DNA of 64,000 bases, taken from positions 25,600 to 89,599 of the forward strand of contig JAZDHZ010000033.1 in the NCBI GenBank assembly GCA_043805415.1, given 5' to 3'. How positions within the stretch are numbered: position 1 is the first letter of the stretch; the number at the start of each line of letters is the position of its first letter. Both the position numbers and the translations under genes were made by a program. This DNA is from Candidatus Omnitrophota bacterium. GTDB taxonomy: Bacteria > Omnitrophota > Gorgyraeia > B26-G9. Of this stretch, positions 3,365-26,594 are shown piece by piece. The notes below the pieces were generated by a model, which did no database searches, was not told where the DNA came from, and saw nothing but the letters and a program-made list of their open reading frames with translations.

Positions 3365-3381
3365 CGCGAACGGAGAGAGCA

Positions 3382-5068: not shown

Positions 5069-5131
5069 ACTTTTATCAAGAAGCTAATTTTAATTTAACT
5101 ATTTTAACTCTAGTATGTTATGGTGATTGGA

Positions 5132-5160: not shown

Positions 5161-5198
5161 GCTTTTTTAGATATAAATCAAGAAAAGAACCATGAATA

Positions 5199-6458: not shown

Positions 6459-6503
6459 AAAAAAGGTTTTTAAACTTTAAGACAGGTTTAGTGAGGGATT
6501 AAG

Positions 6504-7442: not shown

Positions 7443-7473
7443 TTTGATAACCAATCAAAAAAAGGATAGAAAA

Positions 7474-8772: not shown

Positions 8773-8813
8773 CTTTAAAAGATTAAAGCATATAATAAAA
8801 ATAGGTAATTAAC

Positions 8814-9590
8814 ATGTTTCTTTTTAAAAAAATACTAGCTCCTTTTTTATTTCCTGTGCCATTGACTGTTTTGTGTCTTACCGCGGGCATATTATTACTA
8901 TGGTTTTCAAAAAAGCAGAAAGCAGGGAAGATTCTTATAACAGTTGGGATAATATTGCTTGTTCTGAGCAGTTTTAAAGTCACAGCAGAGGCAATGCTTA
9001 GACCAATCGAATATAAGCAGGCTGCTTTTTTAAGCGGAACTAAATATAATAAAAATCAAAGCAAGCCAGCTTTTGTAGTTGTTCTTGGGGGAGGGCATAT
9101 TTCCAATAATGAACTACCGCTGTTAAGTCAAATTGGAAGCGCGTCTTTAGCGCGCTTAATCGAAGGCATCCGCATCCAACGTGAAATTAAAGGCAGCAAA
9201 TTATTGCTTTCAGGCGGTAAAGTATTTGATCCGATTTCTAATGCGGAAATTATGACTGAAATTGCTAAAGCAATCGGTGTGAAGAAAGAAGATATTATTG
9301 TCGAAGATAGTTCCTTAGATACAAAAGATCAGGCAAGGCTCATAAAAGCAATAGTTGGGGATAAAATGTTTGTTTTAGTTACCTCAGCTTCTCATATGCC
9401 AAGGTCAATGGCTTTGTTTAAAAAAGCAGGGATGCATCCTATCCCAGCTTCAACCGGGCATTTGGTTGTTAAGCCTAATGTATTAAGTCCAGGTGTGTTT
9501 TTCCCATCAGCAGGTAATATTGAAAAAACTGAAATAGCGGTTTATGAAACACTCGGACTTATCTGGGCAAAATTAAGAGGACAGATATAG
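8814..9590 (+). CDS. DUF218 (ElyC/YdcF/SanA family) envelope-biogenesis protein
   Basis: N-terminal TM segment, then VVVLGGGHISN...LLLSGGKVFD...VTSASHMPRS, typical of the DUF218 fold. Confidence 0.6.
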   Translation: MFLFKKILAPFLFPVPLTVLCLTAGILLLWFSKKQKAGKILITVGIILLVLSSFKVTAEAMLRPIEYKQAAFLSGTKYNKNQSKPAFVVVLGGGHISNNELPLLSQIGSASLARLIEGIRIQREIKGSKLLLSGGKVFDPISNAEIMTEIAKAIGVKKEDIIVEDSSLDTKDQARLIKAIVGDKMFVLVTSASHMPRSMALFKKAGMHPIPASTGHLVVKPNVLSPGVFFPSAGNIEKTEIAVYETLGLIWAKLRGQI

Positions 9591-9631
9591 ATTTTAAATT
9601 TATTTAATTAAAAAAAATTAGGGGAACTAAT

Positions 9632-10642
9632 ATGAATCAAAATAGCCAGGATTACGAAGATGGGGAGATTGATCTAATCCAGTACATCAGAATTATTTTT
9701 AAGCATAAAAATACTTTTCTTGTAATATTCTTGCTAACTCTTGCTTTTGGCTTGACTAAAAGTATGCTTTCTCCAAAGATATACAGAAGTTCAATGTTGA
9801 TACAACCGCCGGCTGTTGGGATGTCTTTGACTGGGGCTAATGATATTGATTCCGCGGAAAACTTAAAAGCATTGATTGTAAATAAGGCTTTTAATGAAGA
9901 AGTTTACAAAAGATTGAAATTATATCCCATAAAGGATGCAGTTGAATTCAAGGTTGACATCCCGAAGAAAACTAATATTTTACAAGTTAGCATTGATTTG
10001 GAACGTAAGAATAAGGAATCGGGTATGGTTTTGTTACAAAATTTGAATGCTGTAATCGCTGAGAGCTATGCTAAGCGTATCGAGGCTGAATATGCTGATA
10101 TTGCTAGTCAGACAGAATTCAAAAAGCGTGCGATAATAAACACTGAAAATAAGGCAAAAAATTTTCAAGAACAGATAAAGGAAATAATAGCCAGAAAAAA
10201 TAAGCTAAATGAGGAGATGAAATCTGTAAACGCGAACGCATCGCAGACATTAGAGAAGCTTAAAAAATTACCAACAGGTGATAAATCTTCAGAAAGCGCA
10301 TCAATGTTGTTGCTTTCAAACTATCTTCAGAATAATGCTAACTATCTAAACCAGTTAAATAAAGAATTAAGCGCATTAACCATTCGATTGCATCGACTGA
10401 ATATGAAACTGCAAATCACTACTTCTCAAATAAGTGATTCGCGATTGGAGATAGATAACCTTAATATAAAAAATAATTTCATTTCAAATTTAAAAACTAT
10501 TGCCCAGCCGAGAGTTTCAGAAAAACCCATAAACTCTATTGGAAAGCAAACTGTAGTGACATTAATAGCGCTGGGTCTATTTTTAGGATTAATCGCGGTA
10601 TTTTTACAGGAATTCTGGCTGAATAATATGGTGAAAAAATGA
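9632..10642 (+). CDS. wzz: Wzz-like polysaccharide co-polymerase (chain-length determinant)
   Basis: N-terminal TM ([13 protein letters not shown]), a long coiled-coil periplasmic region and a C-terminal TM ([18 protein letters not shown]). Confidence 0.65.
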
Positions 10643-11685
10643 TTAAGAAAGCGCTTATAACAGGGATAACTGGGCAAGATGGTTCATATTTAGCGGAACT
10701 GCTTTTATCTAAAGGCTATGAAGTACATGGAATAATCCGTCGCGCAAGCACATTTAATACCAGCAGAATAGATCATATTTATGTTGATCCGCATTCTAAA
10801 AACCCCAGATTATTGTTGCATTATGGCGATATTTCCGACGCGGAACAAATCAATAATATTATTTTTAATGTAAAACCGGATGAAGTATATCATTTGGCTG
10901 CCCAAAGCCATGTGCGGGTGAGTTTTGATATCCCTGAATACACAGGAAATATTACGGCTTTAGGCACAACACGCATATTGGAAGCAATACGCCGCAGCGG
11001 CAGGAAAATTAAGTTTTATCAGGCTTCCAGCAGCGAAATGTTTGGCGCAGCGATTCCTCCACAATCAGAAACTACTCAGTTTCAGCCGCAAAGCCCTTAT
11101 GCTTGCGCTAAGCTTTATTCATACTGGATGACAAAAAACTATCGTGAAGGATACAAGATGTTTGCCTGTAATGGGATACTTTTTAATCATGAGAGTCCTC
11201 GTAGAGGGGAGACTTTTGTCAGCAGAAAGATTACCAGAGCAGTGGTTAATATCCTAGCTGGTAAGCAGGATAAACTTTATCTGGGGAATCTAGAAGCTAA
11301 GAGGGACTGGGGTTATGCTCCAGAATATGCAGAAATGATGTGGCAAATCCTCCAGCAAAATAAGCCGGATGATTATGTTACCGGTACAGGACAATCTAAT
11401 TCAGTAAGGGAATTAGTTGAGGCAGCTTTTAGTTATGTGGGGTTAAAGTGGAAGAAATATGTAGAAATTGATCCTCGGTATTTCCGGCCTACAGAGGTAA
11501 ACAGTCTTATTGCTGATATTAAGAAAGTAAAGAAGGTATTTAACTGGCAGCCAAAGATAAAATTCAATGATTTAGTAAAGATAATGATTGATGCTGATAT
11601 GAGAGCTTGCGGTTTAGAGCCAATAGGCGAAGGTGATAAAATACTTAAGAAAAAATTTCCCCACAAATGGTGGAAGGTAGACTGA
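10639..11685 (+). CDS. gmd: GDP-mannose 4,6-dehydratase
   Basis: [35 protein letters not shown] is near-identical in pattern to the Gmd N-terminus. Length 348 aa. Confidence 0.92.
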
Positions 11686-11719
11686 GATACAAAGCGCTAT
11701 GCTAACACAAAGGATTTAA

Positions 11720-12655
<936 letters not shown>

Positions 12656-12673
12656 TAATTTAAAGGAGCGGTT

Positions 12674-13447
12674 ATGAAAGTAGTGATTTTATGCGGAGGA
12701 ATGGGGACGCGCTTAAGCGAAGAGACAAGTACAATTCCAAAGCCGATGATTGAAATCGGAGGCAAACCAATACTCTGGCATATTATGAAAATATTTTCTC
12801 ACTATGGATTTAATGATTTTATTATTTGCTTAGGATATCGAGGTTATTTAATCAAAGAATATTTCTCACATTATTTGCTGCATATGAGTGATGTGACAAT
12901 TGATATGGTGGATAATAAGATGGATATACATAGTACTACTTCTGAACCATGGAAAGTTACTTTGGTTGATACAGGCATTAATACGATGACCGGAGGACGT
13001 ATTAAAAAAATCCAGAAATATATTGGAAAAGAACCGTTTATGTTGACATATGGGGATGGAGTGGCGGATATTGATATTAATAAATTAATCAAAACGCATA
13101 AGAGGAATAAGAAGCTGGCGACATTAACCGGAGTTTTGACTGCCGGAAGATTTGGAATTTTGGATATTCAAAAAGATTCGGTTAAGTCTTTTATGGAAAA
13201 ACCAAAGGGCGAAGGTAATCGAATTAATGCTGGTTTTTTCGTTTTGGAACCTGAAATATTTAAGTATCTTAAAAAAGGGGACGCGACAATATGGGAGAGA
13301 GACCCATTGCGTAAATTAGCTGCAGATGGCAAACTCGCGGTTTATAAACATAATGGTTTTTGGAAGTGTATGGATACATTGAGAGATAAAATAGATTTAG
13401 AAAATATGATTGAGTCTGAATATGCTCCTTGGCAGATATGGAAATAG
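12674..13447 (+). CDS. rfbF: Glucose-1-phosphate cytidylyltransferase
   Basis: MKVVILCGGMGTRLSEETSTIPKPMIEIGGKPILWHIMKIFSHYG...GGRIKK...GFWKCMDTLRDK is nearly colinear with Salmonella RfbF/DdhA. Confidence 0.92.
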   Translation: MKVVILCGGMGTRLSEETSTIPKPMIEIGGKPILWHIMKIFSHYGFNDFIICLGYRGYLIKEYFSHYLLHMSDVTIDMVDNKMDIHSTTSEPWKVTLVDTGINTMTGGRIKKIQKYIGKEPFMLTYGDGVADIDINKLIKTHKRNKKLATLTGVLTAGRFGILDIQKDSVKSFMEKPKGEGNRINAGFFVLEPEIFKYLKKGDATIWERDPLRKLAADGKLAVYKHNGFWKCMDTLRDKIDLENMIESEYAPWQIWK

Positions 13448-13460
13448 GGAAGAACTTATT

Positions 13461-14432
13461 ATGAATAAAAAATTTTGGAAAAATAAAAGAGTATTAATAA
13501 CCGGACATGTTGGATTTTTAGGTTCCTGGTTAACTAATACACTGCTTAATCTGGGAGCTGAAATAATTGGGGTTGATATCCTTAAAACTCGTAATGGGTC
13601 TGTTTTAGCTGCTCAAAGTAAGAATCTTAAGGGAATCAAAGCAGATGTCGCGAATTTAAAATCTCTGACAAAGATAGTTTCTAATTATAATCCGCAGATC
13701 ATTTTTCACTTAGCAGCTGAAGCAATAGTATATAAAGCGAATAAAGACCCGGTAAGAGCATTTAAGTCAAACATTGAAGGTACCTGGAATATCCTAGAAA
13801 TCGCGCGAAAAAGAAAGTCAATTAAAGCTATTGTAATGGCATCAAGTGATAAGGCATATGGCAGTCATGAGGTTTTGCCTTATACGGAAGATGCAGCTTT
13901 AAAAGGTGATCATCCTTATGATGTGTCTAAAAGTTGTGCGGATCTTATTGGCTATACCTATGCTCATACTTATTCGGTACCTGTAGCCACAACTCGTTGT
14001 GGAAATATCTATGGCCCTGGAGACAATAATTTTTCCCGCATAGTCCCGGATGCGATTAGATGTGCGTTGGCTAATAAAAAACTTCTTATCCGCAGTGATG
14101 GAAAATTTACCAGGGATTATGTTTTTGTCGATGACATTGTTAATGGGTATATCCTTGTTGCGGAAAAGTTATCTAGTTTAAAGTTAGGAGGAGAGGCATT
14201 TAATTTTAGCGATGAAAACCCTATAACTGTATTAAAGTTAGTTGATAAAATATATGAACTTGCCGGGAAAAAACCTGATTATATAATACAGAATAAAGCC
14301 AAATATGAAATTAAACATCAATATTTGGATTCCCAAAAGGCCAGAAAAGTGTTGTGCTGGAAAGCAAACTATTCACTGGAACAAGGGTTGAGGCAGACTA
14401 TTGATTGGTATAGTGAATTTTTGAATAAATAA
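13461..14432 (+). CDS. rfbG: CDP-glucose 4,6-dehydratase
   Basis: MNKKFWKNKRVLITGHVGFLGSWL..., the RfbG/DdhB pattern. The RBS AGGGAAG precedes ATG 13461. Confidence 0.88.
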   Translation: MNKKFWKNKRVLITGHVGFLGSWLTNTLLNLGAEIIGVDILKTRNGSVLAAQSKNLKGIKADVANLKSLTKIVSNYNPQIIFHLAAEAIVYKANKDPVRAFKSNIEGTWNILEIARKRKSIKAIVMASSDKAYGSHEVLPYTEDAALKGDHPYDVSKSCADLIGYTYAHTYSVPVATTRCGNIYGPGDNNFSRIVPDAIRCALANKKLLIRSDGKFTRDYVFVDDIVNGYILVAEKLSSLKLGGEAFNFSDENPITVLKLVDKIYELAGKKPDYIIQNKAKYEIKHQYLDSQKARKVLCWKANYSLEQGLRQTIDWYSEFLNK

Positions 14433-14444
14433 AACTTAGAGGAT

Positions 14445-15329
14445 TTGATGAGGAAAATCAAGGTAGGCATTATTGGGACAGGCAATATTGGTAGCGATTT
14501 GCTGATGAAAATAATGCGGTCAAATATTTTAGAATGTGGGATGTTTACTGGCAGAAATCCAGGATCTGAAGGTGTAAAAAGAGCAAAGAGTTTAGGAGTC
14601 AGGGTATCATCCGATTCTGTAAAGGCTATAGAAGATGATCCTGATTGCTGTGAGATTGTATTTGATGCTACTTCAGCAAAAGTACATTTGCATAATGCGC
14701 TTATTCTTGAGAAGTTGGGAAAATATACCATTGATCTAACCCCTTCACAGGTAGGGAAAATGTGTGTGCCTGTAATTAATATGGCAGAATGCCTGGATGT
14801 CAAAAATGTTAATCTCATAACTTGCGGCGGGCAAAGTGTAATACCGATAGCATATGCGATTATGAAGGTGCATCCTGAAACAGAATATATAGAGATTGTT
14901 GCTAGCATATCTTCTAAATCCGCCGGCCCAGGGACAAGAGCTAATATTGATGAGTTTACACAAACCACTCGTGATTCTATATTGTCATTTACCGGGGTGC
15001 CAAAGGCAAAAGCGATTATAGTATTAAATCCCGCTGAGCCGCCAGTTTTAATGCATAATACTATCTATGCGACTATAAAAGAACCTAAGATAGACCAGCT
15101 AAATTTTGAGATTAAAGCAATGGTTAAAAAAATTCAACAGTATGTTCCGGGATACAGATTAAAGCTTGGTCCGTTAGTAGAGAATAACCGAGTTGCTACA
15201 ATGATAGAAGTCGTGGGATTGGGAGATTATTTACCGGAATATTCTGGTAATCTGGATATTATTACCTGTGCAGCGGTAAAGATTGCTGAAGAATATGCAA
15301 AAAGCCGTCTAATAAAACAAAAGAAATAA
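14445..15329 (+). CDS. dmpF: Acetaldehyde dehydrogenase (acetylating), DmpF/MhpF-type
   Basis: KVGIIGTGNIGSDLLMK...DATSA..H...CGGQSVIP...VASISSKSAGPGTRANIDEFT. The last stretch is identical to a DmpF signature. Confidence 0.9.
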   Translation: MMRKIKVGIIGTGNIGSDLLMKIMRSNILECGMFTGRNPGSEGVKRAKSLGVRVSSDSVKAIEDDPDCCEIVFDATSAKVHLHNALILEKLGKYTIDLTPSQVGKMCVPVINMAECLDVKNVNLITCGGQSVIPIAYAIMKVHPETEYIEIVASISSKSAGPGTRANIDEFTQTTRDSILSFTGVPKAKAIIVLNPAEPPVLMHNTIYATIKEPKIDQLNFEIKAMVKKIQQYVPGYRLKLGPLVENNRVATMIEVVGLGDYLPEYSGNLDIITCAAVKIAEEYAKSRLIKQKK

Positions 15330-15334
15330 AAATT

Positions 15335-16372
15335 ATGAATAAGATATTATTTTTTGATTCAACTCTTCGCGATGGTTCTCACGCAGTAGCGCATCAACTT
15401 ACTGGTGAAAACATTAAAAACTATTGCAATGAAATAGACAGCGCTGGAACATATACGGCGATTGTCGGTCACGGAAATGGACTAGGAGCTTCGTCTTTAC
15501 AGGTCGGGTTGTCTGCTTTAACCGACCGTGAAATGTTGTCTATAGCGCGGAATCAAATTAAAAAAACTCGGTTGGGAGTTTTCCTGATTCCGGGGTTTGG
15601 GACGATTAAGGATGATCTGGCTCCAGCACTTAAAATTGGTGTTGATCTTGTTTGTGTGGCTTCACATTGTACGGAAGCGGATGTAACAAGGCAACATATT
15701 GAATATGTTCGGAGCAAAGGTAAGGAAGCCTTCGGAGTCTTGATGATGCAGCACATGACGACAAAAGAGCGCTTACTTGAAGAAGCTTTAAAAATGCAGG
15801 AATACGGGGCTTTAGGAGTAATTTTAATGGATTCAGCAGGAGCCTCTATGCCAAATTCAGTTACGGAGAATGTCGAGACCTTGGTCAGAGGAATGAATAT
15901 TAAAGTAGGTTTTCATGCTCATAACAATCTGGGGATGGCTATTGCGAATTCTTTTGCGGCGATAAAAGCCGGAGCAACAATTATTGATGGTACTTTGCGT
16001 GGTTTTGGGGCTGGCGCGGGAAATTGTCAGTTGGAAGTTCTTGCGGGTTGTTTACATAAAGCAGGTATTGAAACGGGACTTGACTTATATAAATTGATGG
16101 ATGTTAGTGAGAATATTGTTGCTGGAATGATGAAAAGACCTCAGGAAATTAGTTCCTTAGGTTTAATTAGCGGTTTAGCTGGGGTTTTTTCCGGGTTTTC
16201 GACAAAGGTTAAAATTGCCGCAGAAAGATTTGGAGTTGATCCACGGGATATATTTATGGAGTTGGGTAAACGCAAAGTTGTTGGAGGACAGGAAGATTTT
16301 ATAACTGATGTTGCTATGGAACTTGCGGAACAAAAGAACGAAAAAGCTAAAAACCAGGATTTGTCTTTTTAA
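15335..16372 (+). CDS. dmpG: 4-hydroxy-2-oxovalerate aldolase, DmpG/MhpE-type (HMGL-like TIM barrel)
   Basis: FFDSTLRDGSHAVAHQ... Length 345 aa equals DmpG, and it sits immediately downstream of dmpF as in meta-cleavage operons. Confidence 0.88.
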   Translation: MNKILFFDSTLRDGSHAVAHQLTGENIKNYCNEIDSAGTYTAIVGHGNGLGASSLQVGLSALTDREMLSIARNQIKKTRLGVFLIPGFGTIKDDLAPALKIGVDLVCVASHCTEADVTRQHIEYVRSKGKEAFGVLMMQHMTTKERLLEEALKMQEYGALGVILMDSAGASMPNSVTENVETLVRGMNIKVGFHAHNNLGMAIANSFAAIKAGATIIDGTLRGFGAGAGNCQLEVLAGCLHKAGIETGLDLYKLMDVSENIVAGMMKRPQEISSLGLISGLAGVFSGFSTKVKIAAERFGVDPRDIFMELGKRKVVGGQEDFITDVAMELAEQKNEKAKNQDLSF

Positions 16373-16393
16373 AATATTCACTGGAGGATTAAA

Positions 16394-17140
16394 ATGATCA
16401 AAGAACAAATGCGAAATGGAAAATTTGTTTTGGGAACTTGGTGTGAGTTACCGAGCCCGGCAGCGATCAATGTTATGGCTAAGGCGGGACTTGATTTTGT
16501 GATCATTGATATGGAACACAGTGTTATGGACTTTAAGACAGCGCAGGAAATGGTATTAGCCGCGGAAGCTGATGGTTGTGATGCGATTATTAGGGTGTGT
16601 CGTAATGATGAATCGGATATTTTAAGAGCATTGGATACTGGTGCGGCTGGGATTATTGTTCCGCATATAGAAAATGTTGAAGACAGGGAGAAGGTTGTTA
16701 GGTACAGTAAGTTTGCCCCTAAAGGTGATAGAGGGTTTAACCCATATATACGTGCCGGAGGCTATAATAGTGTAGGAGCAGATTATTTTCAATTACAGAA
16801 TGAGAAAGTTTTGGTATGTATAATAGTTGAAGGTAAAGAGGCAATGGCCAATCTTGACGAAATTATTTGTGATTCTGATATAGATGTTGTATATATCGGT
16901 ACATATGATTTATCGGTTGCTTTTGGCGTTCCAGGTGATGTGAAGAATAAAAAAGTTACCAATGCGTTAGTGAATTGCGTAGAGAAAATCATTAAGGCTG
17001 GAAAAAGTGCTGGGTGCATGGTTCATAATGCAGATGATCTTAGGTGGTTTAAACAGATAGGAATTCAGTTTATTGCGTACAAGGCTGATACGGCAATAAT
17101 ATTTGATGCCTTTAGCAGTATGAAAAAGGAGATAAGTTAG
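16394..17140 (+). CDS. HpcH/HpaI-family class II pyruvate aldolase (2-keto-3-deoxy-acid aldolase)
   Basis: LGTWCELPSP...DFVIIDMEHS...GIIVPHIEN...GDRGFNP are HpcH/HpaI/YfaU family hallmarks. Confidence 0.8.
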   Translation: MIKEQMRNGKFVLGTWCELPSPAAINVMAKAGLDFVIIDMEHSVMDFKTAQEMVLAAEADGCDAIIRVCRNDESDILRALDTGAAGIIVPHIENVEDREKVVRYSKFAPKGDRGFNPYIRAGGYNSVGADYFQLQNEKVLVCIIVEGKEAMANLDEIICDSDIDVVYIGTYDLSVAFGVPGDVKNKKVTNALVNCVEKIIKAGKSAGCMVHNADDLRWFKQIGIQFIAYKADTAIIFDAFSSMKKEIS

Positions 17141-18951
17141 TGATAAAATTATCAGATTATATTGTTAAGTTTCTTGAGAAAAATTCAGTAAACCGTATTT
17201 TTATGCTTACTGGCGGCGGTTGTATGCATTTGGTTAATTCTATAGGTAACTCTAAAAAAATTAAATATATTTGTTGTCATCATGAGCAGTCTTGTGCTAT
17301 GGCTGCAGAGGCATTTGCTAAATTCAAAAATGATCTGGGGGTGGTGGTGGTTACCAGCGGGCCAGGAGGGACGAATACTATTACTGGCGTAGCTGGTGCT
17401 TATCAGGATTCTGTACCCTGCATTTTTATTTCTGGACAGTCTAAGCGGCAACAAACAGTTAGGAATTCAAAAATTAAATTAAGACAGTTTGGGGTGCAGG
17501 AAGTCGATATAATTCCAATAGTTGAATCGATAACAAAATATGCGGTTATGGTAAATGAATCTAAAAAAGTAAAATATCATCTTGAAAAGGCTTTGTATTT
17601 GGCAAAATCAGGAAGACCTGGGCCAGTATGGCTAGATATTCCTTTGGATGTGCAGAGCTCTCTTATAGACGAAAATGAACTAATTAGCTTTGATCCCAGT
17701 GAGCTTGAAGAAGATTTTAAAATAGAGCCATTAGCAGATGAAGTTTCCAGGATGGTAAATTATTTAAAGACAGCACAGCGTCCGGTAATTATTGCTGGGC
17801 GCGGAATAAGAATAGCAGGCGCAGTAAAAGAACTGGTTAGTTTTGCTAGAAAATATAAAATTCCGGTTGTTACCCCGATTATGGGTATAGATGTCATCTC
17901 GAGCGATGATAAAAACTATATTGGCCGAGTGGGAACAAAAGGGACCCGCGCAGGAAATTTTGCTATGCAAAATGCCGATTTAATATTGAGTATCGGTAGC
18001 CGTTTAAGCGTATCGGTGGTGGGACACGAATATAAATTATTTGCCCGCGAAGCAAAGGTTGTGGTGGTTGATATTGATACCGTAGAACATAGAAAGAAAA
18101 CTATAAACATTTTCGATTTCATCAATTCTGACGCGAAAAAATTTTTGGAAAAACTTGCGAGCGCATTGAAAAATGAAAAACTTGTATTTTCAGATAATTG
18201 GCTAAGGAAATGCAATGAGTGGAAACATAAATATCCAGTGTGCTTGCCGGAGTATAAGAAAACCAAGAAAAATATTAATTTTTATAATTTTATGGATAAG
18301 CTGAATAAAAAGCTAACTGCGGATATCCCCGTAATATCAGATGCCGGGTCAGCTTTCTATGTGGTGTCCCAAGCTATTCATATAAAAAGTGGACAGAGGT
18401 ATATCACATCCGGGGCTTTGGCAACAATGGGATTCGGTCTGCCGGCAGCTATTGGAGTAGCCGCGGCTCTAAAAAAAGATACCCCGGTGGTAACTATAAC
18501 CGGCGAGGGGTCATTTCAGCTGAATATCCAAGAGTTGCAGACAATTGTTCACAATAAGTTTCCAATAAAAATTTTTGTGATAAATAATAAAGGATATTTA
18601 TCGATACGTCAGACTCAGAAGAGGTTTTTTAACGGAAATCTTGTTGGTGAAGGACAGACATCAGGTTTATCTTTTCCTGATACAAAAAAAATTGCCGCGG
18701 CTTACAATGTTAAGTTTGTAAAAGTGGAAAATAATGAAAAACTCGTAAAAGCCTTAGATGAGGTGTTTGCTCATGAAGGGCCTGTTTTATGTGAGATTTG
18801 CGCTTTGGAAGACCAGTTGATCATTCCGACAAATAGCGCGGCGATTAGGGCTGACGGGTCAATGGTTTCAAAACCATTGGAAGATATGTTCCCTTTTTTA
18901 GATCGCAAGGAGTTCTTGGCTAATATGATTGTTACTCCCTGTGAGGAATAG
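17140..18951 (+). CDS. ThDP-dependent acetolactate-synthase-like enzyme, YerE-like branched-chain sugar synthase candidate
   Basis: Three-domain AHAS-like architecture, 603 aa (N-terminal GGGCMHLV, central domain, C-terminal ThDP-binding GEGSFQLNIQEL). It sits between the rfbFG and rfbH homologues, as YerE does in the yersiniose pathway. Confidence 0.75.
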   Translation: MIKLSDYIVKFLEKNSVNRIFMLTGGGCMHLVNSIGNSKKIKYICCHHEQSCAMAAEAFAKFKNDLGVVVVTSGPGGTNTITGVAGAYQDSVPCIFISGQSKRQQTVRNSKIKLRQFGVQEVDIIPIVESITKYAVMVNESKKVKYHLEKALYLAKSGRPGPVWLDIPLDVQSSLIDENELISFDPSELEEDFKIEPLADEVSRMVNYLKTAQRPVIIAGRGIRIAGAVKELVSFARKYKIPVVTPIMGIDVISSDDKNYIGRVGTKGTRAGNFAMQNADLILSIGSRLSVSVVGHEYKLFAREAKVVVVDIDTVEHRKKTINIFDFINSDAKKFLEKLASALKNEKLVFSDNWLRKCNEWKHKYPVCLPEYKKTKKNINFYNFMDKLNKKLTADIPVISDAGSAFYVVSQAIHIKSGQRYITSGALATMGFGLPAAIGVAAALKKDTPVVTITGEGSFQLNIQELQTIVHNKFPIKIFVINNKGYLSIRQTQKRFFNGNLVGEGQTSGLSFPDTKKIAAAYNVKFVKVENNEKLVKALDEVFAHEGPVLCEICALEDQLIIPTNSAAIRADGSMVSKPLEDMFPFLDRKEFLANMIVTPCEE

Positions 18952-18959
18952 GTGAAGAT

Positions 18960-19916
18960 ATGATTCATGCAAGAAAAAAGTTAGCAAAAAAGCGTATTTT
19001 TATTACTGGTGCCAAAGGTTTCGTGGGCAGAAATCTTGAGGAATATCTTAAGAAACAAAATAACTATGAATTGTTTTGTCCTTCACATAGTGAGTTGGAA
19101 TTGCTGGATCCAGAGCAAGTAGAACAATATATAATTTCTAATAAAATAGAGGTGATTATTCATTCGGCTAATCGGGGAGGTTCGCGTAAAGAAGGATATA
19201 ATAATATCGGCACTGATGTATTTTATAAAAATGTGCGCATGTTTTTTAATTTAGCGCGGACTGTTAAAAAAGGAATTAAAATGCTCCATCTGGGTAGCGG
19301 TGCTGAGTTTGATCGGCGAAATTATATTCCGAAGATGAGAGAAGATTATTTTGATACCTTTGTGCCTGAGGATGATTATGGGTTCTCAAAATATGTTTGT
19401 AATAAATTTATAATGAATACAACGGATTCTGTAATAAATTTACGTCTTTTTGCCAATTTTGGAAAATATGAAGATTATGAGTTCAGATTTATTTCAAACT
19501 CAATATTAAAAAATTTGCTGGGGCTTCCAATTACTATCCGTCAGAATGTTAAATTTGAATTTTTATACGTAAATGATTTAGTCAGGATAATAGAGTATTT
19601 TATCAATAATTATGCTAAGTATAAAGCCTATAATATCGCGACGGGAAAACCAGTTGATTTAGTTTCGATTGCGGAGAAGATTAATAAAACATCTAAAAAC
19701 CCTACAGAAGTAATTGTATGCAATCCCGGATTGAATAATGAATATACCGCTGATAATACACGATTGATGGAAGAATTAAAAGATTTCAAGTTCACTCCTA
19801 TTGAAAAGTCGATACGGCAGCTGTATGAGTGGTATAAGGATAATTTAAATTCTCTGAATATAGATAGTGTTATAAAAGATAAATATATTAACGCTTGCCG
19901 GGTTAGGAAAGAATAG
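18960..19916 (+). CDS. NAD(P)-dependent epimerase/reductase (SDR), CDP-paratose/abequose synthase- or YerF-like ketoreductase candidate
   Basis: ITGAKGFVGRNL Rossmann motif, about 300 aa, next to E1 and the YerE-like gene. Confidence 0.55.
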   Translation: MIHARKKLAKKRIFITGAKGFVGRNLEEYLKKQNNYELFCPSHSELELLDPEQVEQYIISNKIEVIIHSANRGGSRKEGYNNIGTDVFYKNVRMFFNLARTVKKGIKMLHLGSGAEFDRRNYIPKMREDYFDTFVPEDDYGFSKYVCNKFIMNTTDSVINLRLFANFGKYEDYEFRFISNSILKNLLGLPITIRQNVKFEFLYVNDLVRIIEYFINNYAKYKAYNIATGKPVDLVSIAEKINKTSKNPTEVIVCNPGLNNEYTADNTRLMEELKDFKFTPIEKSIRQLYEWYKDNLNSLNIDSVIKDKYINACRVRKE

Positions 19917-19918
19917 TT

Positions 19919-21241
19919 ATGGATAAAAGGGGGAAACTGCGTAAGCAGATTCTAAAAAAAGTAAAGGAATATCATAAAGCGGGTGTACGAGTTCCTTTTA
20001 TTCCAGGGAAATCTAATGTGCCTTATGCCGGTCGAGTGTTTGATGAAAAAGAACTGGTCAATCTAGTTGATGCTTCTTTAGATTTTTGGCTTACTGCCGG
20101 CAGGTTTGCGGATAAATTTGAAAAGGGTCTTGCTGATTTCTTAGGAGTGAAATATTGTCTTTTGACAAATTCAGGTTCTTCTGCTAATCTTCTGGCAATA
20201 TCCGCGTTAACTTCTCCTTTATTGAAAAAACGCCAGCTAAAGGCTGGAGATGAAGTTATTACTACTGCTTGCGGATTTCCAACAACGCTTAATCCTATTT
20301 TGCAAAATAATTTAGTTCCAGTGTTTGTGGATGTGCAATTGGGTAATTACAATATTGATGTTAGCTGTATTGAGAAAGCTGTTTCAAAAAAAACAAAAGC
20401 GATTTTTGTTCCCCATACTCTGGGGAATCCGTTTGATCTTGATAAGGTTTTAAAGATCGCAAAAAAATACGGATTATTTGTTATTGAAGATAATTGCGAT
20501 GCTCTTGGATCAAAATACAAAGGAAAATTTACCGGTACATTTGGTGATATTGCAACCTGTAGTTTTTATCCCGCGCACCATATTACAATGGGTGAAGGCG
20601 GGTCCTTGCTGACCAATGACCCACTGCTGCATCGAATTATTCTTTCTTTTAGGGATTGGGGCCGTGATTGCTGGTGTGACCCAGGCAAGGACAATAGCTG
20701 TAAAAAACGTTTTTTGCAAAAACATGGAAACCTGCCATATGGTTATGATCATAAATATGTGTATTCACATATTGGATATAATTTAAGAGTTACAGATATG
20801 CAGGCAGCTATTGGCGTTGCTCAATTAAAAAAACTTGATTCGTATATAAAACAACGAAAAAATAATTTCGCTTATCTTTTTAAATATCTGTGTAAATTTG
20901 ATAAATACTTTATTTTGCCAAAATCATATCAAGGGACTGAACCAAGCTGGTTTGGTTTGCCCATTTTAGTAAAAAAAGACGCGCCTTTTACCAGGAACGA
21001 TATTGTTAATTATCTGGAGGAGAATAAGATTGCTACCCGAATGCTTTTTGGGGGTAATTTAACTAAACAACCGGCGTACAAAAACGCGATATATAAAGTA
21101 TCTGGGAACTTAAATAATACCGATTTAGTTATGAATAATTTATTTTGGATAGGGGTGTATCCGGGACTTACTAAAAACATGTTGAATTATATCTGTGAAA
21201 AATTTGAAATATTTTTTAAAAAAGTAATTAAAGATAAATAA
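19919..21241 (+). CDS. rfbH: CDP-6-deoxy-D-xylo-4-hexulose-3-dehydrase (E1), PMP-dependent DegT-family with [2Fe-2S] motif
   Basis: DegT/DnrJ fold with YPAHHITMGEGG (His replaces the PLP-Lys, diagnostic of E1) and a Cys cluster DWGRDCWCDPGKDNSC. Length 440 aa. Confidence 0.88.
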   Translation: MDKRGKLRKQILKKVKEYHKAGVRVPFIPGKSNVPYAGRVFDEKELVNLVDASLDFWLTAGRFADKFEKGLADFLGVKYCLLTNSGSSANLLAISALTSPLLKKRQLKAGDEVITTACGFPTTLNPILQNNLVPVFVDVQLGNYNIDVSCIEKAVSKKTKAIFVPHTLGNPFDLDKVLKIAKKYGLFVIEDNCDALGSKYKGKFTGTFGDIATCSFYPAHHITMGEGGSLLTNDPLLHRIILSFRDWGRDCWCDPGKDNSCKKRFLQKHGNLPYGYDHKYVYSHIGYNLRVTDMQAAIGVAQLKKLDSYIKQRKNNFAYLFKYLCKFDKYFILPKSYQGTEPSWFGLPILVKKDAPFTRNDIVNYLEENKIATRMLFGGNLTKQPAYKNAIYKVSGNLNNTDLVMNNLFWIGVYPGLTKNMLNYICEKFEIFFKKVIKDK

Positions 21242-21447: not shown

Positions 21448-22392
21448 ATGACCACTGAGGGGCAGGTCAGGAGGATAATGGATCCAGAAATACGGACAGA
21501 GACTTTAACCAGTTGTCCTATCTGCAATAGCGTTGTAATTTTAATGCTCCTTGAGGCGCGGGATTATGAAAGTAATCTAGGAACATATTCAATATTCAGA
21601 TGCTCAAACTGTAAAGTATGTTTTACTAACCCCAGAGTGATAGAGGAAGATATTCCAAGAATGTATACTGAGAATTTTGGCGGTGTGGATATTGCGACCT
21701 CAAGTAATGTTTCTTACATATTGAAAACACTTAAGATCCGGGGCTACTCCAGGAAAATTCTTAAGGAGTGTCATAAGAAAGAGAATTTACGAGTTCTTGA
21801 TTTAGGGTGTGGTGATGGACTTATAGCTAGCCATTTATCATTTAACAAACTGTGTGCGAGTGTTGTCGCAGCTGATTTTTCTCCCGAGGCACCGGCAATT
21901 TTCAAGAAACACCCAATAAAGAATTTATGCTATATTCAGTATCAAAAACTTTTCAATGATTGTACCGAAAAATTTGACCTTATAGTTTTGCGGCACGTAT
22001 TGGAACACACTATTTCTCCCCGTGAGTTTATTCGTTCTGCAGCCTCACTATTAGCTGATAATGGAACTATTGTCATAGAGATCCCAAATATTGATACGGT
22101 GTGGAGAAATATATTTAAGGGCAAGTATATACAATTAGACGTTCCTTTTCATTTTTTTCACTTTAATAAGCAATCATTTTACTCAACTTTTGGGGGAGAT
22201 TACAATATAAAGAGGTTTCAGTATGCTAGTATCCCTGTTTTGGGTCCGAGCTTGCTTAATTGTTTCGGTCTAAGAGTAAACAGGGTTGGATTGATGGCGA
22301 TTATGTTTTATCCAATACAATTAGTTTTTAATTTTATATTTCAAGGCTATCCTGCGATGCTAATTTCGTTACAAAATAAATCACCTGATTAG
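21448..22392 (+). CDS. Class I SAM-dependent methyltransferase with N-terminal zinc-ribbon
   Basis: CPICNS...CSNCKVCF zinc ribbon, VLDLGCGDG SAM motif I, and a C-terminal IPN...W...LDVPFHFFHF motif shared with the 30827 and 60952 paralogues. Confidence 0.75.
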   Translation: MTTEGQVRRIMDPEIRTETLTSCPICNSVVILMLLEARDYESNLGTYSIFRCSNCKVCFTNPRVIEEDIPRMYTENFGGVDIATSSNVSYILKTLKIRGYSRKILKECHKKENLRVLDLGCGDGLIASHLSFNKLCASVVAADFSPEAPAIFKKHPIKNLCYIQYQKLFNDCTEKFDLIVLRHVLEHTISPREFIRSAASLLADNGTIVIEIPNIDTVWRNIFKGKYIQLDVPFHFFHFNKQSFYSTFGGDYNIKRFQYASIPVLGPSLLNCFGLRVNRVGLMAIMFYPIQLVFNFIFQGYPAMLISLQNKSPD

Positions 22393-22487: not shown

Positions 22488-23423
22488 ATGCATAAAATAA
22501 GCGTGGTAACGCCTTGTTATAATGAAGAAGAAAATGTGGAAGAATTGTATGTAAAAGTAAGAGACATATTCCACGAGCTTAAGGGGTATAGCTATGAACA
22601 TATTTTTATTGATAATGCTTCTTATGATAAAACTTTGCCGATTCTTAAGAGATTAGCCCTCAAGGATAAGAATCTTAAAATAATCGTGAATATAAAGAAT
22701 TTTGGACATATTCGTTCCCCGTATTATGGTTTGCTTCAAGCTAAAGGGAATGCTGTGATTTTTATGGCCTCTGATTTTCAGGATCCTCCTGAGTTAATTA
22801 AGACTTTTATCTCTAAATGGGAAGAAGGCTATAAAATAGTTATAGGTGTTAAGGATAAAAGTGAAGAAAATCCAGCTATGTTCGCGATAAGAAAGTTATA
22901 TTATTTGTTGATTAAGAAATTCTCATATGGGGTAAGGCAAATAGGGAATTTTACTGGATTCGGGTTGTATGACCGGTCTTTTGTAAATATTTTAAAAACT
23001 CTTAATGAGCCGTATCCATATCTACGGGGGTTAGTGGCAGACTATGGCGTGGAACTGGCAGAAGTTGAGTTTACGCAGCCTGAAAGAAAAAAAGGAGTGT
23101 CCAAGAATAATTTATATACTTTATTTGACATGGCTATGCTGGGCTTCGTAAGTTACTCTATGGTTCCATTGAGAATTGCCACTTTTTTTGGTTTCTGCGC
23201 TTCGGCAGTAAGTTTCCTTATAGCGATAATCTATTTTATATACAAGATTATTTTTTGGAATAGATTTCAATTAGGAATAGCTCCAATAATAATTGGTTTC
23301 TTTTTTCTTTTTTCTATCCAGTTATTTTTTATTGGGATAATGGGAGAATATGTAGGTGCTGTTTTTACTCAAGTAAAGGGTAGACCTTTGGTGATAGAAA
23401 AAGAGAGGATTAATTTTAACTGA
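22488..23423 (+). CDS. Polyprenyl-phosphate glycosyltransferase (GT2; GtrB/ArnC/DPM-synthase-like) with C-terminal TM helices
   Basis: ISVVTPCYNEEEN...IFIDNASYDKT...ASDFQDPPE with two C-terminal TM segments. Confidence 0.8.
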   Translation: MHKISVVTPCYNEEENVEELYVKVRDIFHELKGYSYEHIFIDNASYDKTLPILKRLALKDKNLKIIVNIKNFGHIRSPYYGLLQAKGNAVIFMASDFQDPPELIKTFISKWEEGYKIVIGVKDKSEENPAMFAIRKLYYLLIKKFSYGVRQIGNFTGFGLYDRSFVNILKTLNEPYPYLRGLVADYGVELAEVEFTQPERKKGVSKNNLYTLFDMAMLGFVSYSMVPLRIATFFGFCASAVSFLIAIIYFIYKIIFWNRFQLGIAPIIIGFFFLFSIQLFFIGIMGEYVGAVFTQVKGRPLVIEKERINFN

Positions 23424-23447
23424 ATAAAATAATGGATAATTACTGCT

Positions 23448-25052
23448 ATGAATATTAAAAATCCCAAAACCATCATTAATCCATGTTTTCTGGAAAATAA
23501 AAGCAAACTATTAAAGCTTTTTTTCATAATACCATTAGGGATCATAGTAACTGCGATCGCGTATTATCTGCTTACACAGATCTTTTACTATTTTCCCGGG
23601 GGTGTAGGTGGGAAAGAGGTATTCCTTTATCCACGTTATTGCTCTCCACAAAATGGTTTACCTTCTGGGGTATTTCATCAATGGCGACAATTAGGGCTAG
23701 TAATAATTACTGGTATTGCTAGTGTTTTTACTGCACTTTATTTGAGCAGAAATAAAAAAATCACATTAGGTAAGTTCCTCGTTGTTATATATATATTGGC
23801 TCTAACCCTAGAATTTATGTTTGTATTGCTTACTCCGAACGGGTTTGGGCATTTAGGATTACAGGCAAAATCAATTAATAATGGGATTTGGTTAAGTTTG
23901 GATGTGATTAATAATACTATTCAGCAGCGCCATTTTAATTTTGTGGATACTCTGAGATATATTTATGTAGATTTGGGAGGGAATAAGTGCGGCTATACTC
24001 TTCCCGGCACTACCCATCCTCCCGGCATTTTCCTGGTGTCAATCGCGATTTTTAGGTTGGCTACTCATATTTTTCGTTTTCTCCATAATCCATCGCTGGC
24101 TTGGGCAATTACTGTGACTTTAATAAATACTCTTTTAATTGGTATGGTTGCTTTAATTGCCAAAGAAGTATTTTCAACGCGTATTGCTAAATTAACTGCG
24201 ATCTTTCTTTTGACTGTGCCTTCTGTGTTAATGCATTTTTCTGCTATGCTGGACGGCATAGCATCTTTATTTACGGCAACCAGTGTTTTTATGATGATTA
24301 AAACTCTGAAATATTTTCGCGAAGATGCCTTCATTAGGAATAGAACAAAATCGTTTTTAATGGGTATGCTTTCTGGATTATTTTTTATGCTTTGTCTGCA
24401 AATGACTTATGGGCATGCTGTACCAATAGGTGCTTTAGTATTAGCTTTTATTGTTTTGGTTGATAAAAAAGATTTTAAAAATTTATCCATGTTTATGTTT
24501 GGGATGATTATGATCGCGCTTATGTATTTTAGTTTTGAATATTTGATAAGCCATGGAACTTCTTTTTGGTTTAAGCGGGCATTCAGAATAGCGAAAATTG
24601 TTGGCAATGGGCTTGCCAGTCGGCCATATCCTTTGTCACAAGTAGCTAATTTTGTTGTGCTTTCAGTAATGGGGGGGATTTTATTCCTTCCCGGTGTTAT
24701 TCTTGTGGTCGGGTATAGCTTTGGTTTTTTATGGCGATTGATCAAAGGGCAATTATCTTTCTCTAATTCCAGAGCTCTCTGCAGGGGTTTTTTATGGTTC
24801 TCTGCGGTATTAGCATTATCATATCTACTTTTTCAAAGGACTGTTCGCCTTGAAACGGAGAGGACATTACATTGGTTTCTTATTTTTATCTGGAGCTTGT
24901 CAGGGATATTCTTTATTTCGATTGATGCTTTCTGCAGAGAAATATTTAGAGGCATGTTTATTCGCAATAAAAAAATTGGTGTGTTAGTTTTTATTTTATT
25001 GCAGTTTGTAATAACCTTGACTTTGGCTATGAGTATTCAAGATTACTATTAA
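23448..25052 (+). CDS. Polytopic membrane protein, possible GtrC/GT-C-like partner of the preceding polyprenyl-P glycosyltransferase
   Basis: About 12-14 hydrophobic segments. The position mirrors the gtrB-gtrC / arnC-arnT arrangement. I recognised no specific motif. Confidence 0.35.
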   Translation: MNIKNPKTIINPCFLENKSKLLKLFFIIPLGIIVTAIAYYLLTQIFYYFPGGVGGKEVFLYPRYCSPQNGLPSGVFHQWRQLGLVIITGIASVFTALYLSRNKKITLGKFLVVIYILALTLEFMFVLLTPNGFGHLGLQAKSINNGIWLSLDVINNTIQQRHFNFVDTLRYIYVDLGGNKCGYTLPGTTHPPGIFLVSIAIFRLATHIFRFLHNPSLAWAITVTLINTLLIGMVALIAKEVFSTRIAKLTAIFLLTVPSVLMHFSAMLDGIASLFTATSVFMMIKTLKYFREDAFIRNRTKSFLMGMLSGLFFMLCLQMTYGHAVPIGALVLAFIVLVDKKDFKNLSMFMFGMIMIALMYFSFEYLISHGTSFWFKRAFRIAKIVGNGLASRPYPLSQVANFVVLSVMGGILFLPGVILVVGYSFGFLWRLIKGQLSFSNSRALCRGFLWFSAVLALSYLLFQRTVRLETERTLHWFLIFIWSLSGIFFISIDAFCREIFRGMFIRNKKIGVLVFILLQFVITLTLAMSIQDYY

Positions 25053-25070
25053 TTATAGTAAGGATAATAT

Positions 25071-26594
25071 ATGGTTACGAGAACTAATAAGGCTATTAAA
25101 GGCACAAGTGTGAGTTTTCTGCAATATGGTTTGCAGATTGTGCTACAAGCTATACTCATGCCTTTAATATTAAAAATAGCCGGGAGAGAAACATTAGGCG
25201 CGTATGCTATTCTAATGCAGGTTATCGGCTACGGAATTCTTTTAGATTTGGGATTTGGAGCAGCCTTAGGCAGATATTTAGCCCAAGCTTTTGGTTTTGA
25301 TGATAATGGTGTTAGATTTGTTCAAACTTTTAATATAGGGCGAACGTTTTACTTATTTACTAACTTAATATTTGGTTTGTTAGTTATTATTTTCAGTTTT
25401 TATGTTAATAAGTTTTTACTTGTTGATGAGAGAATTCTTGCGCAGGCACGATTATCTTTGTATCTATATGGATTGTGGATAATAATTCGCACTCCGCTTG
25501 TTATTTATAATTACAACTTAAATGCTACCCAAAATATGTCTGCTTCAAATCTTATCGCTATTTTAGGAAACGCGAGCAGGTTGATTTTTTCTTTAATTCT
25601 TGTTTTTATGAAGGCAGGGCTGGTTGGGTTGATATCAGCAAACATAATAGCTGAAATAGTAATTTCGGGGTGTAGTTTCATGTACTTCAAAAAAATATTT
25701 CCAATTTATAAGTTTGGCTGGGGGATAAGGGATTGGACATTATTTAAGGATATGTTTGTTTTTGGCAGAAGATATTGGGGAGTTAATGTCGCAGGTTTAT
25801 TAATGTTTGGTACTGATAATATGATTGTGGGCTATTTATACGGAGCAGCAATAGCGTCAGTTTACTACACCACTAAAATACCTGTATTTTTATTATTTCA
25901 AGCAATCTTTAAATTATCTGAAAATGCTTCTCCTGCGGCAAATGAATTATTCGCGAGAAAAAATTTTACTGCGTTACATAATGCTTATTTTAGGTTAATG
26001 CGATATTCAATGCTTTTGGTTGTGCCGCTGGCTTTGGGAATAATAAGTATGAATAGATTATTGGTTTCTGTCTGGGTTAGCCCCCAGCAATACGCAGGTG
26101 ATCTTATGACTATTTCTTGTGCGATTTTTGCAATTGCCGCAGTGTTTAATAATGTAAACGCTACAATTGTTGTTGTTTTTAACAATATACGCGATTGGTC
26201 TACTGTATCGATTGTATCGGGAATAGCGGGTTTATTATTAGCATTACTTTTAGGTAAGTCTTTGGGTTTTCAAGGGGTCGCTGTTTCAATAGTTTTAACT
26301 TGTTTGCCTAGTTTAATATTTCTCTTGCGCCGTAGTATGCAATCTCTTAGAATTAATTTTGCACAATTATGGAAAGAAGTGTATAAACCAACAATAATTT
26401 CCAGTATTCCTATAGCGATATTGACTATCATTATAAAGTATTATCAGGTAACACCTTCAGTTAGAGCTCTATTTATGCTCACTGGGCTATATGTCATATT
26501 CTGGATTATTGGAGTTTACAGCTTTGGTATAAATGATAAAGAGCGGAATACTATTAACCATTATTTGCAATTAAAGTTTGCGGGGAATATATGA
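25071..26594 (+). CDS. Wzx-like polysaccharide flippase (MOP superfamily), second copy
   Basis: 507 aa, about 12-14 TM, with an N-terminus typical of Wzx/polysaccharide biosynthesis protein families. Confidence 0.6.
   Translation: MVTRTNKAIKGTSVSFLQYGLQIVLQAILMPLILKIAGRETLGAYAILMQVIGYGILLDLGFGAALGRYLAQAFGFDDNGVRFVQTFNIGRTFYLFTNLIFGLLVIIFSFYVNKFLLVDERILAQARLSLYLYGLWIIIRTPLVIYNYNLNATQNMSASNLIAILGNASRLIFSLILVFMKAGLVGLISANIIAEIVISGCSFMYFKKIFPIYKFGWGIRDWTLFKDMFVFGRRYWGVNVAGLLMFGTDNMIVGYLYGAAIASVYYTTKIPVFLLFQAIFKLSENASPAANELFARKNFTALHNAYFRLMRYSMLLVVPLALGIISMNRLLVSVWVSPQQYAGDLMTISCAIFAIAAVFNNVNATIVVVFNNIRDWSTVSIVSGIAGLLLALLLGKSLGFQGVAVSIVLTCLPSLIFLLRRSMQSLRINFAQLWKEVYKPTIISSIPIAILTIIIKYYQVTPSVRALFMLTGLYVIFWIIGVYSFGINDKERNTINHYLQLKFAGNI

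Follow-up and report, generated by a model that had tools for sequence, protein, structure and literature searches.

In the 'unifying scheme' for acyl-branched sugars that Steitz et al. 2022 (PMC9306805) proposed and partly proved, 4-hydroxy-2-oxo acids made by aldolases are decarboxylated by a YerE-like thiamine diphosphate (ThDP)-dependent enzyme and added to CDP-4-keto-3,6-dideoxyglucose. In Pectobacterium atrosepticum SCRI1043 the erwiniose cluster encodes ErwE, a homologue of YerE, and the reductase ErwF next to the BphI-like aldolase ErwI, the BphJ-like acetaldehyde dehydrogenase ErwJ and the CDP-4-keto-3,6-dideoxyglucose genes; in vitro, ErwE accepts 4-hydroxy-2-oxopentanoate and rejects pyruvate, preferring the (4R) donor and picking the enantiomer that yields a (1R,4R) product (PMC9306805). 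The corresponding ThDP enzyme for caryophyllose, MMAR_2332 of Mycobacterium marinum, adjoins MMAR_2331, an aldolase of the HpcH/citrate-lyase family, and MMAR_2331/MMAR_2332 knock-outs lose caryophyllose (PMC9306805). Here we describe an eight-gene cassette from a Candidatus Omnitrophota bacterium that unites the aldolases of both published routes, a DmpF/DmpG pair (DmpFG) and an HpcH-family enzyme. It lies in a 64,000-nucleotide stretch of contig JAZDHZ010000033.1 (assembly GCA_043805415.1, positions 25,600 to 89,599 of the forward strand), which we call the window and whose own numbering we use throughout.

The eight genes (12674-21241) all lie on the plus strand with gaps of no more than about 25 nt, and the stop codon of the HpcH gene and the GTG start of the ThDP gene overlap by 1 nt. 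The open reading frame (ORF) of RfbG (13410-14432) opens at a TTG at 13410; from the junction sequence, the ATG at 13461 is the likely start. A promoter and terminator scan of the window gave counts no better than in shuffled sequence. Taking together family memberships, catalytic residues, conserved synteny and the separate clades of the ThDP enzymes, we consider it likely that the eight genes make up a single operon and that it directs the synthesis of a CDP-activated 3,6-dideoxyhexose bearing at C4 an acyl branch of more than two carbons. A previous sequence-only reading of this DNA had made the same eight family assignments, all of which hold in profile searches, and both motifs it listed, a 21-residue DmpF signature ([21 protein letters not shown]) and TLRDGSHA in DmpG, were found. 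The mechanism it outlined, in which DmpF and DmpG supply a donor, a YerE-like enzyme uses a long 2-oxo acid, the neighbouring short-chain dehydrogenase/reductase (SDR) reduces the ketone and the product resembles erwiniose or caryophyllose, was right in kind and agrees with the published scheme, and is for that reason not new; its statement that no genetic basis had been reported for such sugars was mistaken, the scheme having appeared in 2022 (PMC9306805). Its further point, that two pyruvate aldolases in such a locus had not been described, survives in part: each type alone is published (PMC9306805), and we found the combination in no description. Our literature search for both aldolases in one cassette returned nothing, with the proviso that the supplement of Steitz et al. 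or a 2024 in-silico survey of YerE clusters (doi 10.1002/anie.202403535) could list it.

The residues needed for catalysis are present throughout the putative donor module. DmpF keeps its catalytic Cys127 within the motif ITCGGQ, and DmpG, which matches the solved enzyme 1NVM with 263 bits, keeps Arg12, Asp13, His16, two metal-binding His residues and the communication domain. The HpcH protein scores below the equivalog cutoffs of HpaI, GarL and RhmA and matches solved HpaI/GarL-type structures at about 120 bits; with His42, Arg67, Glu146 and Asp172 conserved, by homology it should condense the enolate of a 2-oxo acid with a carbonyl compound. In E1 the lysine that binds pyridoxal phosphate is replaced by His (YPAHH at residue 217), and the iron-sulfur motif C-x-C-x7-C is found at residue 251 as CWCDPGKDNSC.

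The ThDP enzyme is closer to solved YerE-type enzymes (8rph, 415 bits; PpYerE 5ahk, 287 bits) than to acetohydroxyacid synthase (AHAS; at most 250 bits), falls under every AHAS equivalog cutoff and adjoins rfbF, rfbG and rfbH, which agrees with its earlier description as YerE-like; carboligation onto the C4 ketone of the CDP-sugar is predicted. A protein with 100% identity to it comes from a Candidatus Omnitrophota metagenome-assembled genome, and an exact look-up of the protein gave no recorded contig. The cofactor-activating Glu49 lies in an HHEQ motif and is invariant in one ThDP alignment and dominant among relatives. The canonical ThDP/Mg motif GDG-X(24-27)-NN reads GEG...NN in the window enzyme (residues 455-457); among 84 relatives GDG occurs in 72 and GEG in 11, including those of Roseburia faecis, L007, L009 and L035 (L numbers denote related loci). 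GEG for GDG is a conservative change; the CDG of JanthE indicates that the motif can vary.

The ThDP family search gave 8000 scored matches below 1e-30, with at least 600 genome matches across Bacteria and Archaea, and 85 related loci were annotated using the window proteins. The rfbF, rfbG and rfbH genes adjoin the ThDP gene in nearly all of these loci that are long enough, RfbF homologues lying next to it in most. The order DmpF-DmpG-HpcH-ThDP recurs in R. faecis (L001-L003), Omnitrophota (L004/L005), Elusimicrobia (L006), an uncultured bacterium (L007), Desulfobacterales (L009), a Magasanikiibacteriota/CPR bacterium (L022), L087, Desulfitobacteriaceae (L088) and the metagenome contigs L089, L098, L109, L111, L112 and L119. 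A metagenome scan anchored on HpcH found the ThDP gene directly after HpcH in 17 of 21 loci (those with at least 49% HpcH identity and sufficient downstream sequence), and in nine loci close homologues of DmpG or DmpF-DmpG stood directly before HpcH. Co-occurrence of dmpFG with rfbH and yerE homologues, which the sequence-only reading had raised as a check, is therefore positive, with conserved order in several phyla.

In a neighbour-joining tree of the ThDP enzymes, those of loci with both DmpFG and HpcH form one clade (52-67% identity to the window enzyme), with L022 just outside, and those of DmpFG-only loci (L063 and L067; 44-45%) and HpcH-only loci (L030 and L035; 46-47%) form two others. 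The window HpcH is 48-50% identical to the HpcH of HpcH-only loci. This co-variation of clade with donor genes suggests that each clade uses a donor acid of its own and that HpcH is integral to the window's module. DmpFG and HpcH had earlier been treated as alternatives; the comparative data, with a ThDP clade particular to loci that carry both, indicate instead an integrated three-enzyme donor module.

The genes before the ThDP enzyme vary widely over the surveyed loci, and the route is both very widespread and modular: DmpFG, HpcH, both, HMGL-like/MptE-like fusions or an aminotransferase may stand there, and for the DmpFG plus HpcH module there is no described product. HpcH-only loci (L030, L035, L097, L099, L104 and L105) carry an HMGL-like protein in place of DmpFG. 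By Pfam this protein is fused to an MptE-like domain in L030 (7476-9206), as it is in L095 (2480-4198), and the L035 fragment (2-646) shows the MptE-like domain. L075 and L081 have an HMGL-like gene with weak similarity to DmpG before the ThDP gene, L086 (7863-10797) has a class I/II aminotransferase directly upstream of the YerE-like gene, and L063 (2344-4180) has a split transketolase upstream of DmpF. An MBL-fold hydrolase stands in front of the YerE-like genes in L004/L005 (6576-7316) and, with an LdpA-like Fe-S protein, in L030 (5003-6725). L095 itself (2480-7501) has the HMGL/MptE fusion, an LdpA-like Fe-S protein, a HAD phosphatase, HpcH and a CTP_transf_3 cytidylyltransferase and has no ThDP enzyme; its gene content suggests a route to a CMP-activated 3-deoxy-2-ulosonic acid via the HpcH aldolase. 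The metagenome loci L108, L118, L120 and L124 show part of this layout: they lack a ThDP gene, and a distantly DmpG-like gene precedes HpcH by about 3.5 kb.

The DmpG proteins of these loci carry a signature that bears on stereochemistry. In an alignment to 1NVM, BphI Leu87 and Tyr290 correspond to Phe83 and Phe285 of the window DmpG. In BphI, Leu87 and Tyr290 give (4S) specificity; stereocontrol is lost in the Y290F variant and inverted to (4R) in the double variants L87W/Y290F and L87N/Y290F (PMC3962088). At these positions the solved catabolic enzymes 1NVM and 8IH7 carry Leu and Tyr, whereas in all 12 glycan-linked DmpG homologues with both positions readable the second is Phe and the first is Phe, Tyr or His. 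These 12 come from loci with and without HpcH (DmpFG-only L063 and L067 are Phe/Phe), and in a thirteenth, the L006 fragment, the second position alone is readable and is Phe. The natural Phe/Phe pair predicts a (4R)-selective aldolase, in line with the (4R) donor preference of ErwE, which would make this DmpG a candidate biocatalyst.

Among the best 150 DmpG-like representatives from a library of 1.84 billion proteins, the main groups are about 19 with Phe/Tyr/His plus Phe, 13 with Leu/Tyr and 82 with Phe/His. Members of the Phe/His group, mostly 600-700 residues long, have Arg-Asp-Tyr in place of Arg-Asp-His, and the proteins of L075 (7144-8895) and L081 (8364-9983) are of this Arg-Asp-Tyr variant. 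Proteins of this large family stand upstream of the HpcH or ThDP gene in L030, L035, L095, L075 and L081; we know of no described function for this family. A DmpG-HpcH fusion was sought among the long DmpG-like representatives and rejected, P0248 being a DmpG-methyltransferase fusion instead.

From these data we propose the following pathway. RfbF, the 4,6-dehydratase and E1 (RfbH) would form CDP-4-keto-3,6-dideoxyglucose using an electron donor from outside the locus. DmpF would reduce acetyl-CoA to acetaldehyde and channel it to DmpG, which would condense it with pyruvate to 4-hydroxy-2-oxopentanoate, predicted to be (4R). HpcH would then turn the DmpG product into the actual donor 2-oxo acid, most plausibly a C7 acid formed by a second aldol step; the YerE-like enzyme would decarboxylate this donor and add the acyl anion to the C4 ketone, the SDR would reduce the new side-chain ketone, and an ArnC/PgfS-like GT2 probably moves the sugar to a lipid carrier for a surface glycan. 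The formation of the acceptor sugar, the DmpF and DmpG reactions, the carboligation and the ketone reduction are proposed by analogy with the published work on ErwE, ErwI and ErwJ and on MMAR_2331/2332, while the reaction of HpcH and the nature of the final sugar we infer.

We lean towards a sequential role for HpcH, fed by DmpFG and making the direct donor. The HpcH gene is immediately upstream of and coupled to the ThDP gene, and the gene order matches a plausible order of reactions. In L030 and L095 HpcH is preceded by an HMGL-like enzyme, an LdpA-like Fe-S protein and a HAD phosphatase, and is followed by a ThDP enzyme (L030) or a CMP-transferase (L095); because it there too follows another HMGL-like enzyme, HpcH may be the maker of the final 2-oxo acid in a two-aldolase module. 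Three reactions were considered. 4-Hydroxy-2-oxopentanoate could be decarboxylated to 3-hydroxybutanal, which with pyruvate would give 4,6-dihydroxy-2-oxoheptanoate; it could attack a second acetaldehyde as nucleophile to yield a forked C7 acid; or, as electrophile, it could accept pyruvate to yield a carboxylated C8 acid. In the first case the single ThDP enzyme would have to do two jobs. Direct addition of pyruvate by HpcH to the C4 ketone of the sugar, as in a shewanellose-like product, was rejected, since that ketone is required by the ThDP enzyme and can take part in a single C-C bond formation only. Tentatively, and with rather less confidence than we place in the sequential role of HpcH, we suggest that the product is an undescribed branched deoxysugar made by two successive aldol steps from acetyl-CoA and pyruvate, decorating surface glycans in several phyla and the flagellin of R. 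faecis. The candidate donors, 4,6-dihydroxy-2-oxoheptanoate and 3-(1-hydroxyethyl)-4-hydroxy-2-oxopentanoate, would each place a C6 side chain on the 3,6-dideoxyhexose, and the linear one would give an '8-deoxy-caryophyllose'-type skeleton. The glycan residue is predicted to weigh 262.142 Da with a C6 trihydroxyhexyl branch (C12H24O7 minus water), as against 218.115 Da for the erwiniose type (C10H20O6 minus water) and 306.131 Da for a carboxylated C7 branch (C13H24O9 minus water).

Several observations weigh against the operon and its product as proposed here. The window lacks a gene for the E3 reductase (AscD/RfbI): its ORFs of 150 aa or more include no FAD_binding_6, NAD_binding_1 or Fer2 domain. 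Nor can such a gene be seen in the closest related loci, so that the electron donor of E1 must be encoded elsewhere. The Yersinia pathway, by comparison, includes the E3 reductase DdhD, and the E1 homologue SpnQ functions with general cellular reductases. L086 has an NAD_binding_1 gene, and L030 and L095 each encode an LdpA-like Fe-S protein, that of L030 being a possible stand-in for the missing E3. The dehydratase score also falls short of the CDP-glucose dehydratase cutoff (Table 1). The sequence-only reading had RfbF, RfbG and E1 leading to CDP-4-keto-3,6-dideoxyhexose; RfbF and E1 do reach equivalog level, while RfbG scores below its cutoff and the need for E3 had been overlooked.

Other such points concern the donor and the side chain. 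To serve HpcH as an aldehyde, 4-hydroxy-2-oxopentanoate must first be decarboxylated, and the sole candidate for this is the single ThDP enzyme. The (4R) prediction leans on two solved catabolic references and one mutagenesis study. The SDR that follows the ThDP gene in the window is not an orthologue of its counterparts in the closest relatives: it shares 43% identity with the post-ThDP SDR of DmpFG-only L063 and is unrelated to those at the same position in L004 (11812-12708), L006 (3448-4392) and L007 (11838-12791), so the reduction step may differ in stereochemistry within the clade. The SDR at the reductase position is in this way swapped for a non-homologous SDR subfamily in the nearest relatives of the cassette, while the window SDR matches those of DmpFG-only and other loci. 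Finally, in the soil metagenome locus L093 (1392-8533) DmpF-DmpG-ThDP-SDR is followed immediately by HpcH-ThDP; both published module types thus stand side by side, each with its own ThDP enzyme, which suggests that the two aldolases can act independently.

The best surviving alternative is that the cassette makes erwiniose itself, or a stereoisomer sharing its C4 branch, with DmpFG as the sole source of the donor and HpcH auxiliary, redundant or recycling the unused enantiomer. HpaI yields racemic 4-hydroxy-2-oxopentanoate from pyruvate and acetaldehyde, and was so used by Steitz et al. (PMC9306805); the existence of L063 and L067 with the same Phe/Phe signature and no HpcH, and the similarity of the window SDR to that of L063, also speak for it. 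We nevertheless regard it as unlikely, since all members of the clade, which spans several phyla, retain HpcH, since its translation is coupled to that of the ThDP gene, and since the ThDP enzymes of loci with both aldolases are in a clade separate from the DmpFG-only ones, which argues for a different donor.

Less probable again is that DmpFG and HpcH, the latter with lactaldehyde, a deoxytetrose or similar, feed a promiscuous ThDP enzyme as independent donors and give two branched sugars, or that HpcH serves another pathway of the 60 kb glycan locus. The separate modules of L093 are in keeping with this, as are the broad promiscuity of which YerE-like enzymes are capable, as seen with MyGE (PMC9306805), and the L095 HpcH, which has no ThDP enzyme and lies beside a CMP-transferase. 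The window, however, contains just one ThDP enzyme and one set of CDP-sugar genes, with no cytidylyltransferase of the CMP-ulosonic-acid type beside HpcH, and its gene order is strict, with HpcH coupled to the ThDP gene. That catabolic dmpFG and hpcH genes of the meta-cleavage type landed by chance in a glycan locus beside an ordinary acetolactate synthase is highly improbable: all three do score best against catabolic or AHAS equivalog models (NCBIfam), but the synteny refutes this, with a gene order constant in at least six phyla and always beside rfbF/rfbG/rfbH, and the window holds no hydratase, dioxygenase or AHAS small-subunit genes, the ThDP enzyme is nearer to the solved YerE-like enzymes, and the stereo-determining residues of DmpG are unlike those of catabolic enzymes.

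Table 1. Genes of the cassette and the genes that follow it in the window.
Coordinates	Strand	Assignment	Evidence
12674..13447	+	RfbF, glucose-1-phosphate cytidylyltransferase (makes CDP-glucose)	TIGR02623 equivalog, 400.6 bits vs cutoff 300
13461..14432	+	RfbG, CDP-glucose 4,6-dehydratase-like SDR	TIGR02622 top match, 244.7 bits, below cutoff of 278; PF16363/PF01370
14445..15329	+	DmpF/BphJ/ErwJ-like acylating acetaldehyde dehydrogenase	TIGR03215, 400.7 bits vs cutoff 282; PF09290
15335..16372	+	DmpG/BphI/ErwI-like class II pyruvate aldolase	TIGR03217, 389 bits vs cutoff 286; DmpG_comm domain
16394..17140	+	HpcH/HpaI-family class II 2-oxoacid aldolase	PF03328, 100 bits
17140..18951	+	YerE-like ThDP-dependent carboligase (predicted C4-branching)	three TPP domains, PF02776/PF00205/PF02775
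18960..19916	+	extended SDR in YerF/ErwF position, putative reductase of side-chain C1' ketone	PF01370
19919..21241	+	RfbH/E1, CDP-6-deoxy-L-threo-D-glycero-4-hexulose 3-dehydrase	NF011936 equivalog, 719 bits vs cutoff 423
21448..22392	+	S-adenosylmethionine (SAM)-dependent methyltransferase	PF13489 and related; 206-nt gap after operon
22488..23423	+	PgfS/ArnC-like GT2 (polyprenyl-phosphate sugar transferase type)	NF047588 168 bits, PRK10714 108 bits, both below cutoff
23448..25052	+	polytopic membrane protein, 534 aa, about 14 hydrophobic segments	hydropathy count
25071..26594	+	Wzx/MATE-like flippase	PF13440/PF01943/PF01554

The cassette belongs to a glycan locus, about 60 kb in length, that also encodes Wzx, Wzz, Wzy_C and a large number of glycosyltransferases and holds further sugar-nucleotide genes. 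The methyltransferase that follows the operon, whose homologues in the related loci are weak, is possibly a tailoring enzyme, loosely associated with the cassette. Homologues of the GT2 (49-64% identity) lie near the ThDP gene in many related loci, and the GT2 probably loads the sugar onto a lipid carrier. The 534-aa membrane protein matches no Pfam family, and the related loci hold no homologue of it; our guess is that it is a GT-C-type transferase. The flippase has a strong homologue (439 bits) in the ThDP locus L060. Together the GT2, membrane protein and flippase (22488-26594) suggest that the branched sugar travels on a polyprenyl-phosphate carrier and is added outside the cytoplasm.

Elsewhere in the window a class I SAM methyltransferase is paired with a B12-binding radical SAM protein at three places (30827-33114, 54038-56271 and 59406-61878), the members of each set being distant paralogues with 22-28% identity. 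These enzymes may C-methylate glycans or tailor them by other radical chemistry; B12-radical SAM genes flank the cassette also in L004/L005 and L095. At 35724-37891 a protein of the NDP-hexose C-methyltransferase type (Methyltransf_13/14) stands beside a GFO/IDH/MocA oxidoreductase, a pair that hints at a second, C-methyl-branched sugar from the same glycan locus. A HisH-like glutamine amidotransferase, a HisF-like cyclase and an NAD-synthase-like protein are encoded side by side at 2628-5068, an arrangement that we take to resemble a trio of the WbuX/Y/Z type for acetamidino sugars, and a spore-photoproduct-lyase-like radical SAM gene is found at 178-1581 on the strand opposite to this trio.

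The most useful lead for identifying the sugar comes from R. faecis, whose ThDP protein is 60% identical to that of the window and occurs in 1551 blocks of the contig collection. In L001-L003, all of the R. faecis type, the region 2089-16786 holds DmpF-DmpG-HpcH-ThDP-SDR together with RfbH, a dehydratase and two NTP-transferases. This full cassette is immediately preceded by genes for flagellin, an MptE-like (Maf-type) protein and a GT2, and NeuB/CMP-sugar genes follow it. From its gene content this region looks like a flagellin glycosylation island of an abundant human gut commensal. We found no literature on a branched sugar of Roseburia flagellin. The organism is cultivable and medically relevant, flagellin glycans affect immune recognition, and the cassette's sugar could be identified there.

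Compared with the known systems, the window resembles the erwiniose cluster: it too has a ThDP enzyme and a reductase beside a DmpG-like aldolase, a DmpF-like dehydrogenase and CDP-4-keto-3,6-dideoxyglucose genes, and its donor would likewise come from pyruvate and acetaldehyde derived from acetyl-CoA. It differs in the HpcH aldolase inserted between DmpG and the ThDP gene, in its host, an Omnitrophota metagenome-assembled genome with 36% G+C, and, relative to the DmpFG-only loci (L063 and L067), in the clade of its ThDP enzyme. A search for ErwE itself, with the ThDP enzyme of a DmpFG-only gammaproteobacterial locus as query, gave environmental sequences of 65-90% identity in all of its best 120 matches and no Pectobacterium among them. 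With the yersiniose A pathway of Yersinia pseudotuberculosis (YerE/YerF with DdhABCD) the window would share the acceptor sugar, the C4 chemistry and the subsequent ketone reduction, whereas YerE takes pyruvate and requires no aldolase. With the DmpFG/BphIJ enzymes of aromatic meta-cleavage (PDB 1NVM) it shares the two-protein architecture, the catalytic residues and the communication domain; unlike these, the window pair would run anabolically, has Phe/Phe instead of Leu/Tyr at the BphI stereo positions and is without catabolic partner genes, no meta-cleavage context (hydratase, dioxygenase, hydrolase) being present in the window or the related loci.

In the caryophyllose genes and the related cluster of Rhodopseudomonas palustris CGA009, as in the window, an HpcH-family aldolase adjoins a YerE-like enzyme and is the proposed maker of a long 2-oxo-acid donor, whereas no DmpF/DmpG pair is described there (PMC9306805). 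The ThDP enzymes of the HpcH-only loci form a clade apart from the window's, a comparison made via the surveyed loci L030 and L035 and not the MMAR sequences. Judged by gene content and ThDP phylogeny, the window locus is neither erwiniose-type nor caryophyllose-type in the strict sense; it joins the donor enzymes of the two to a ThDP enzyme from a clade of its own.

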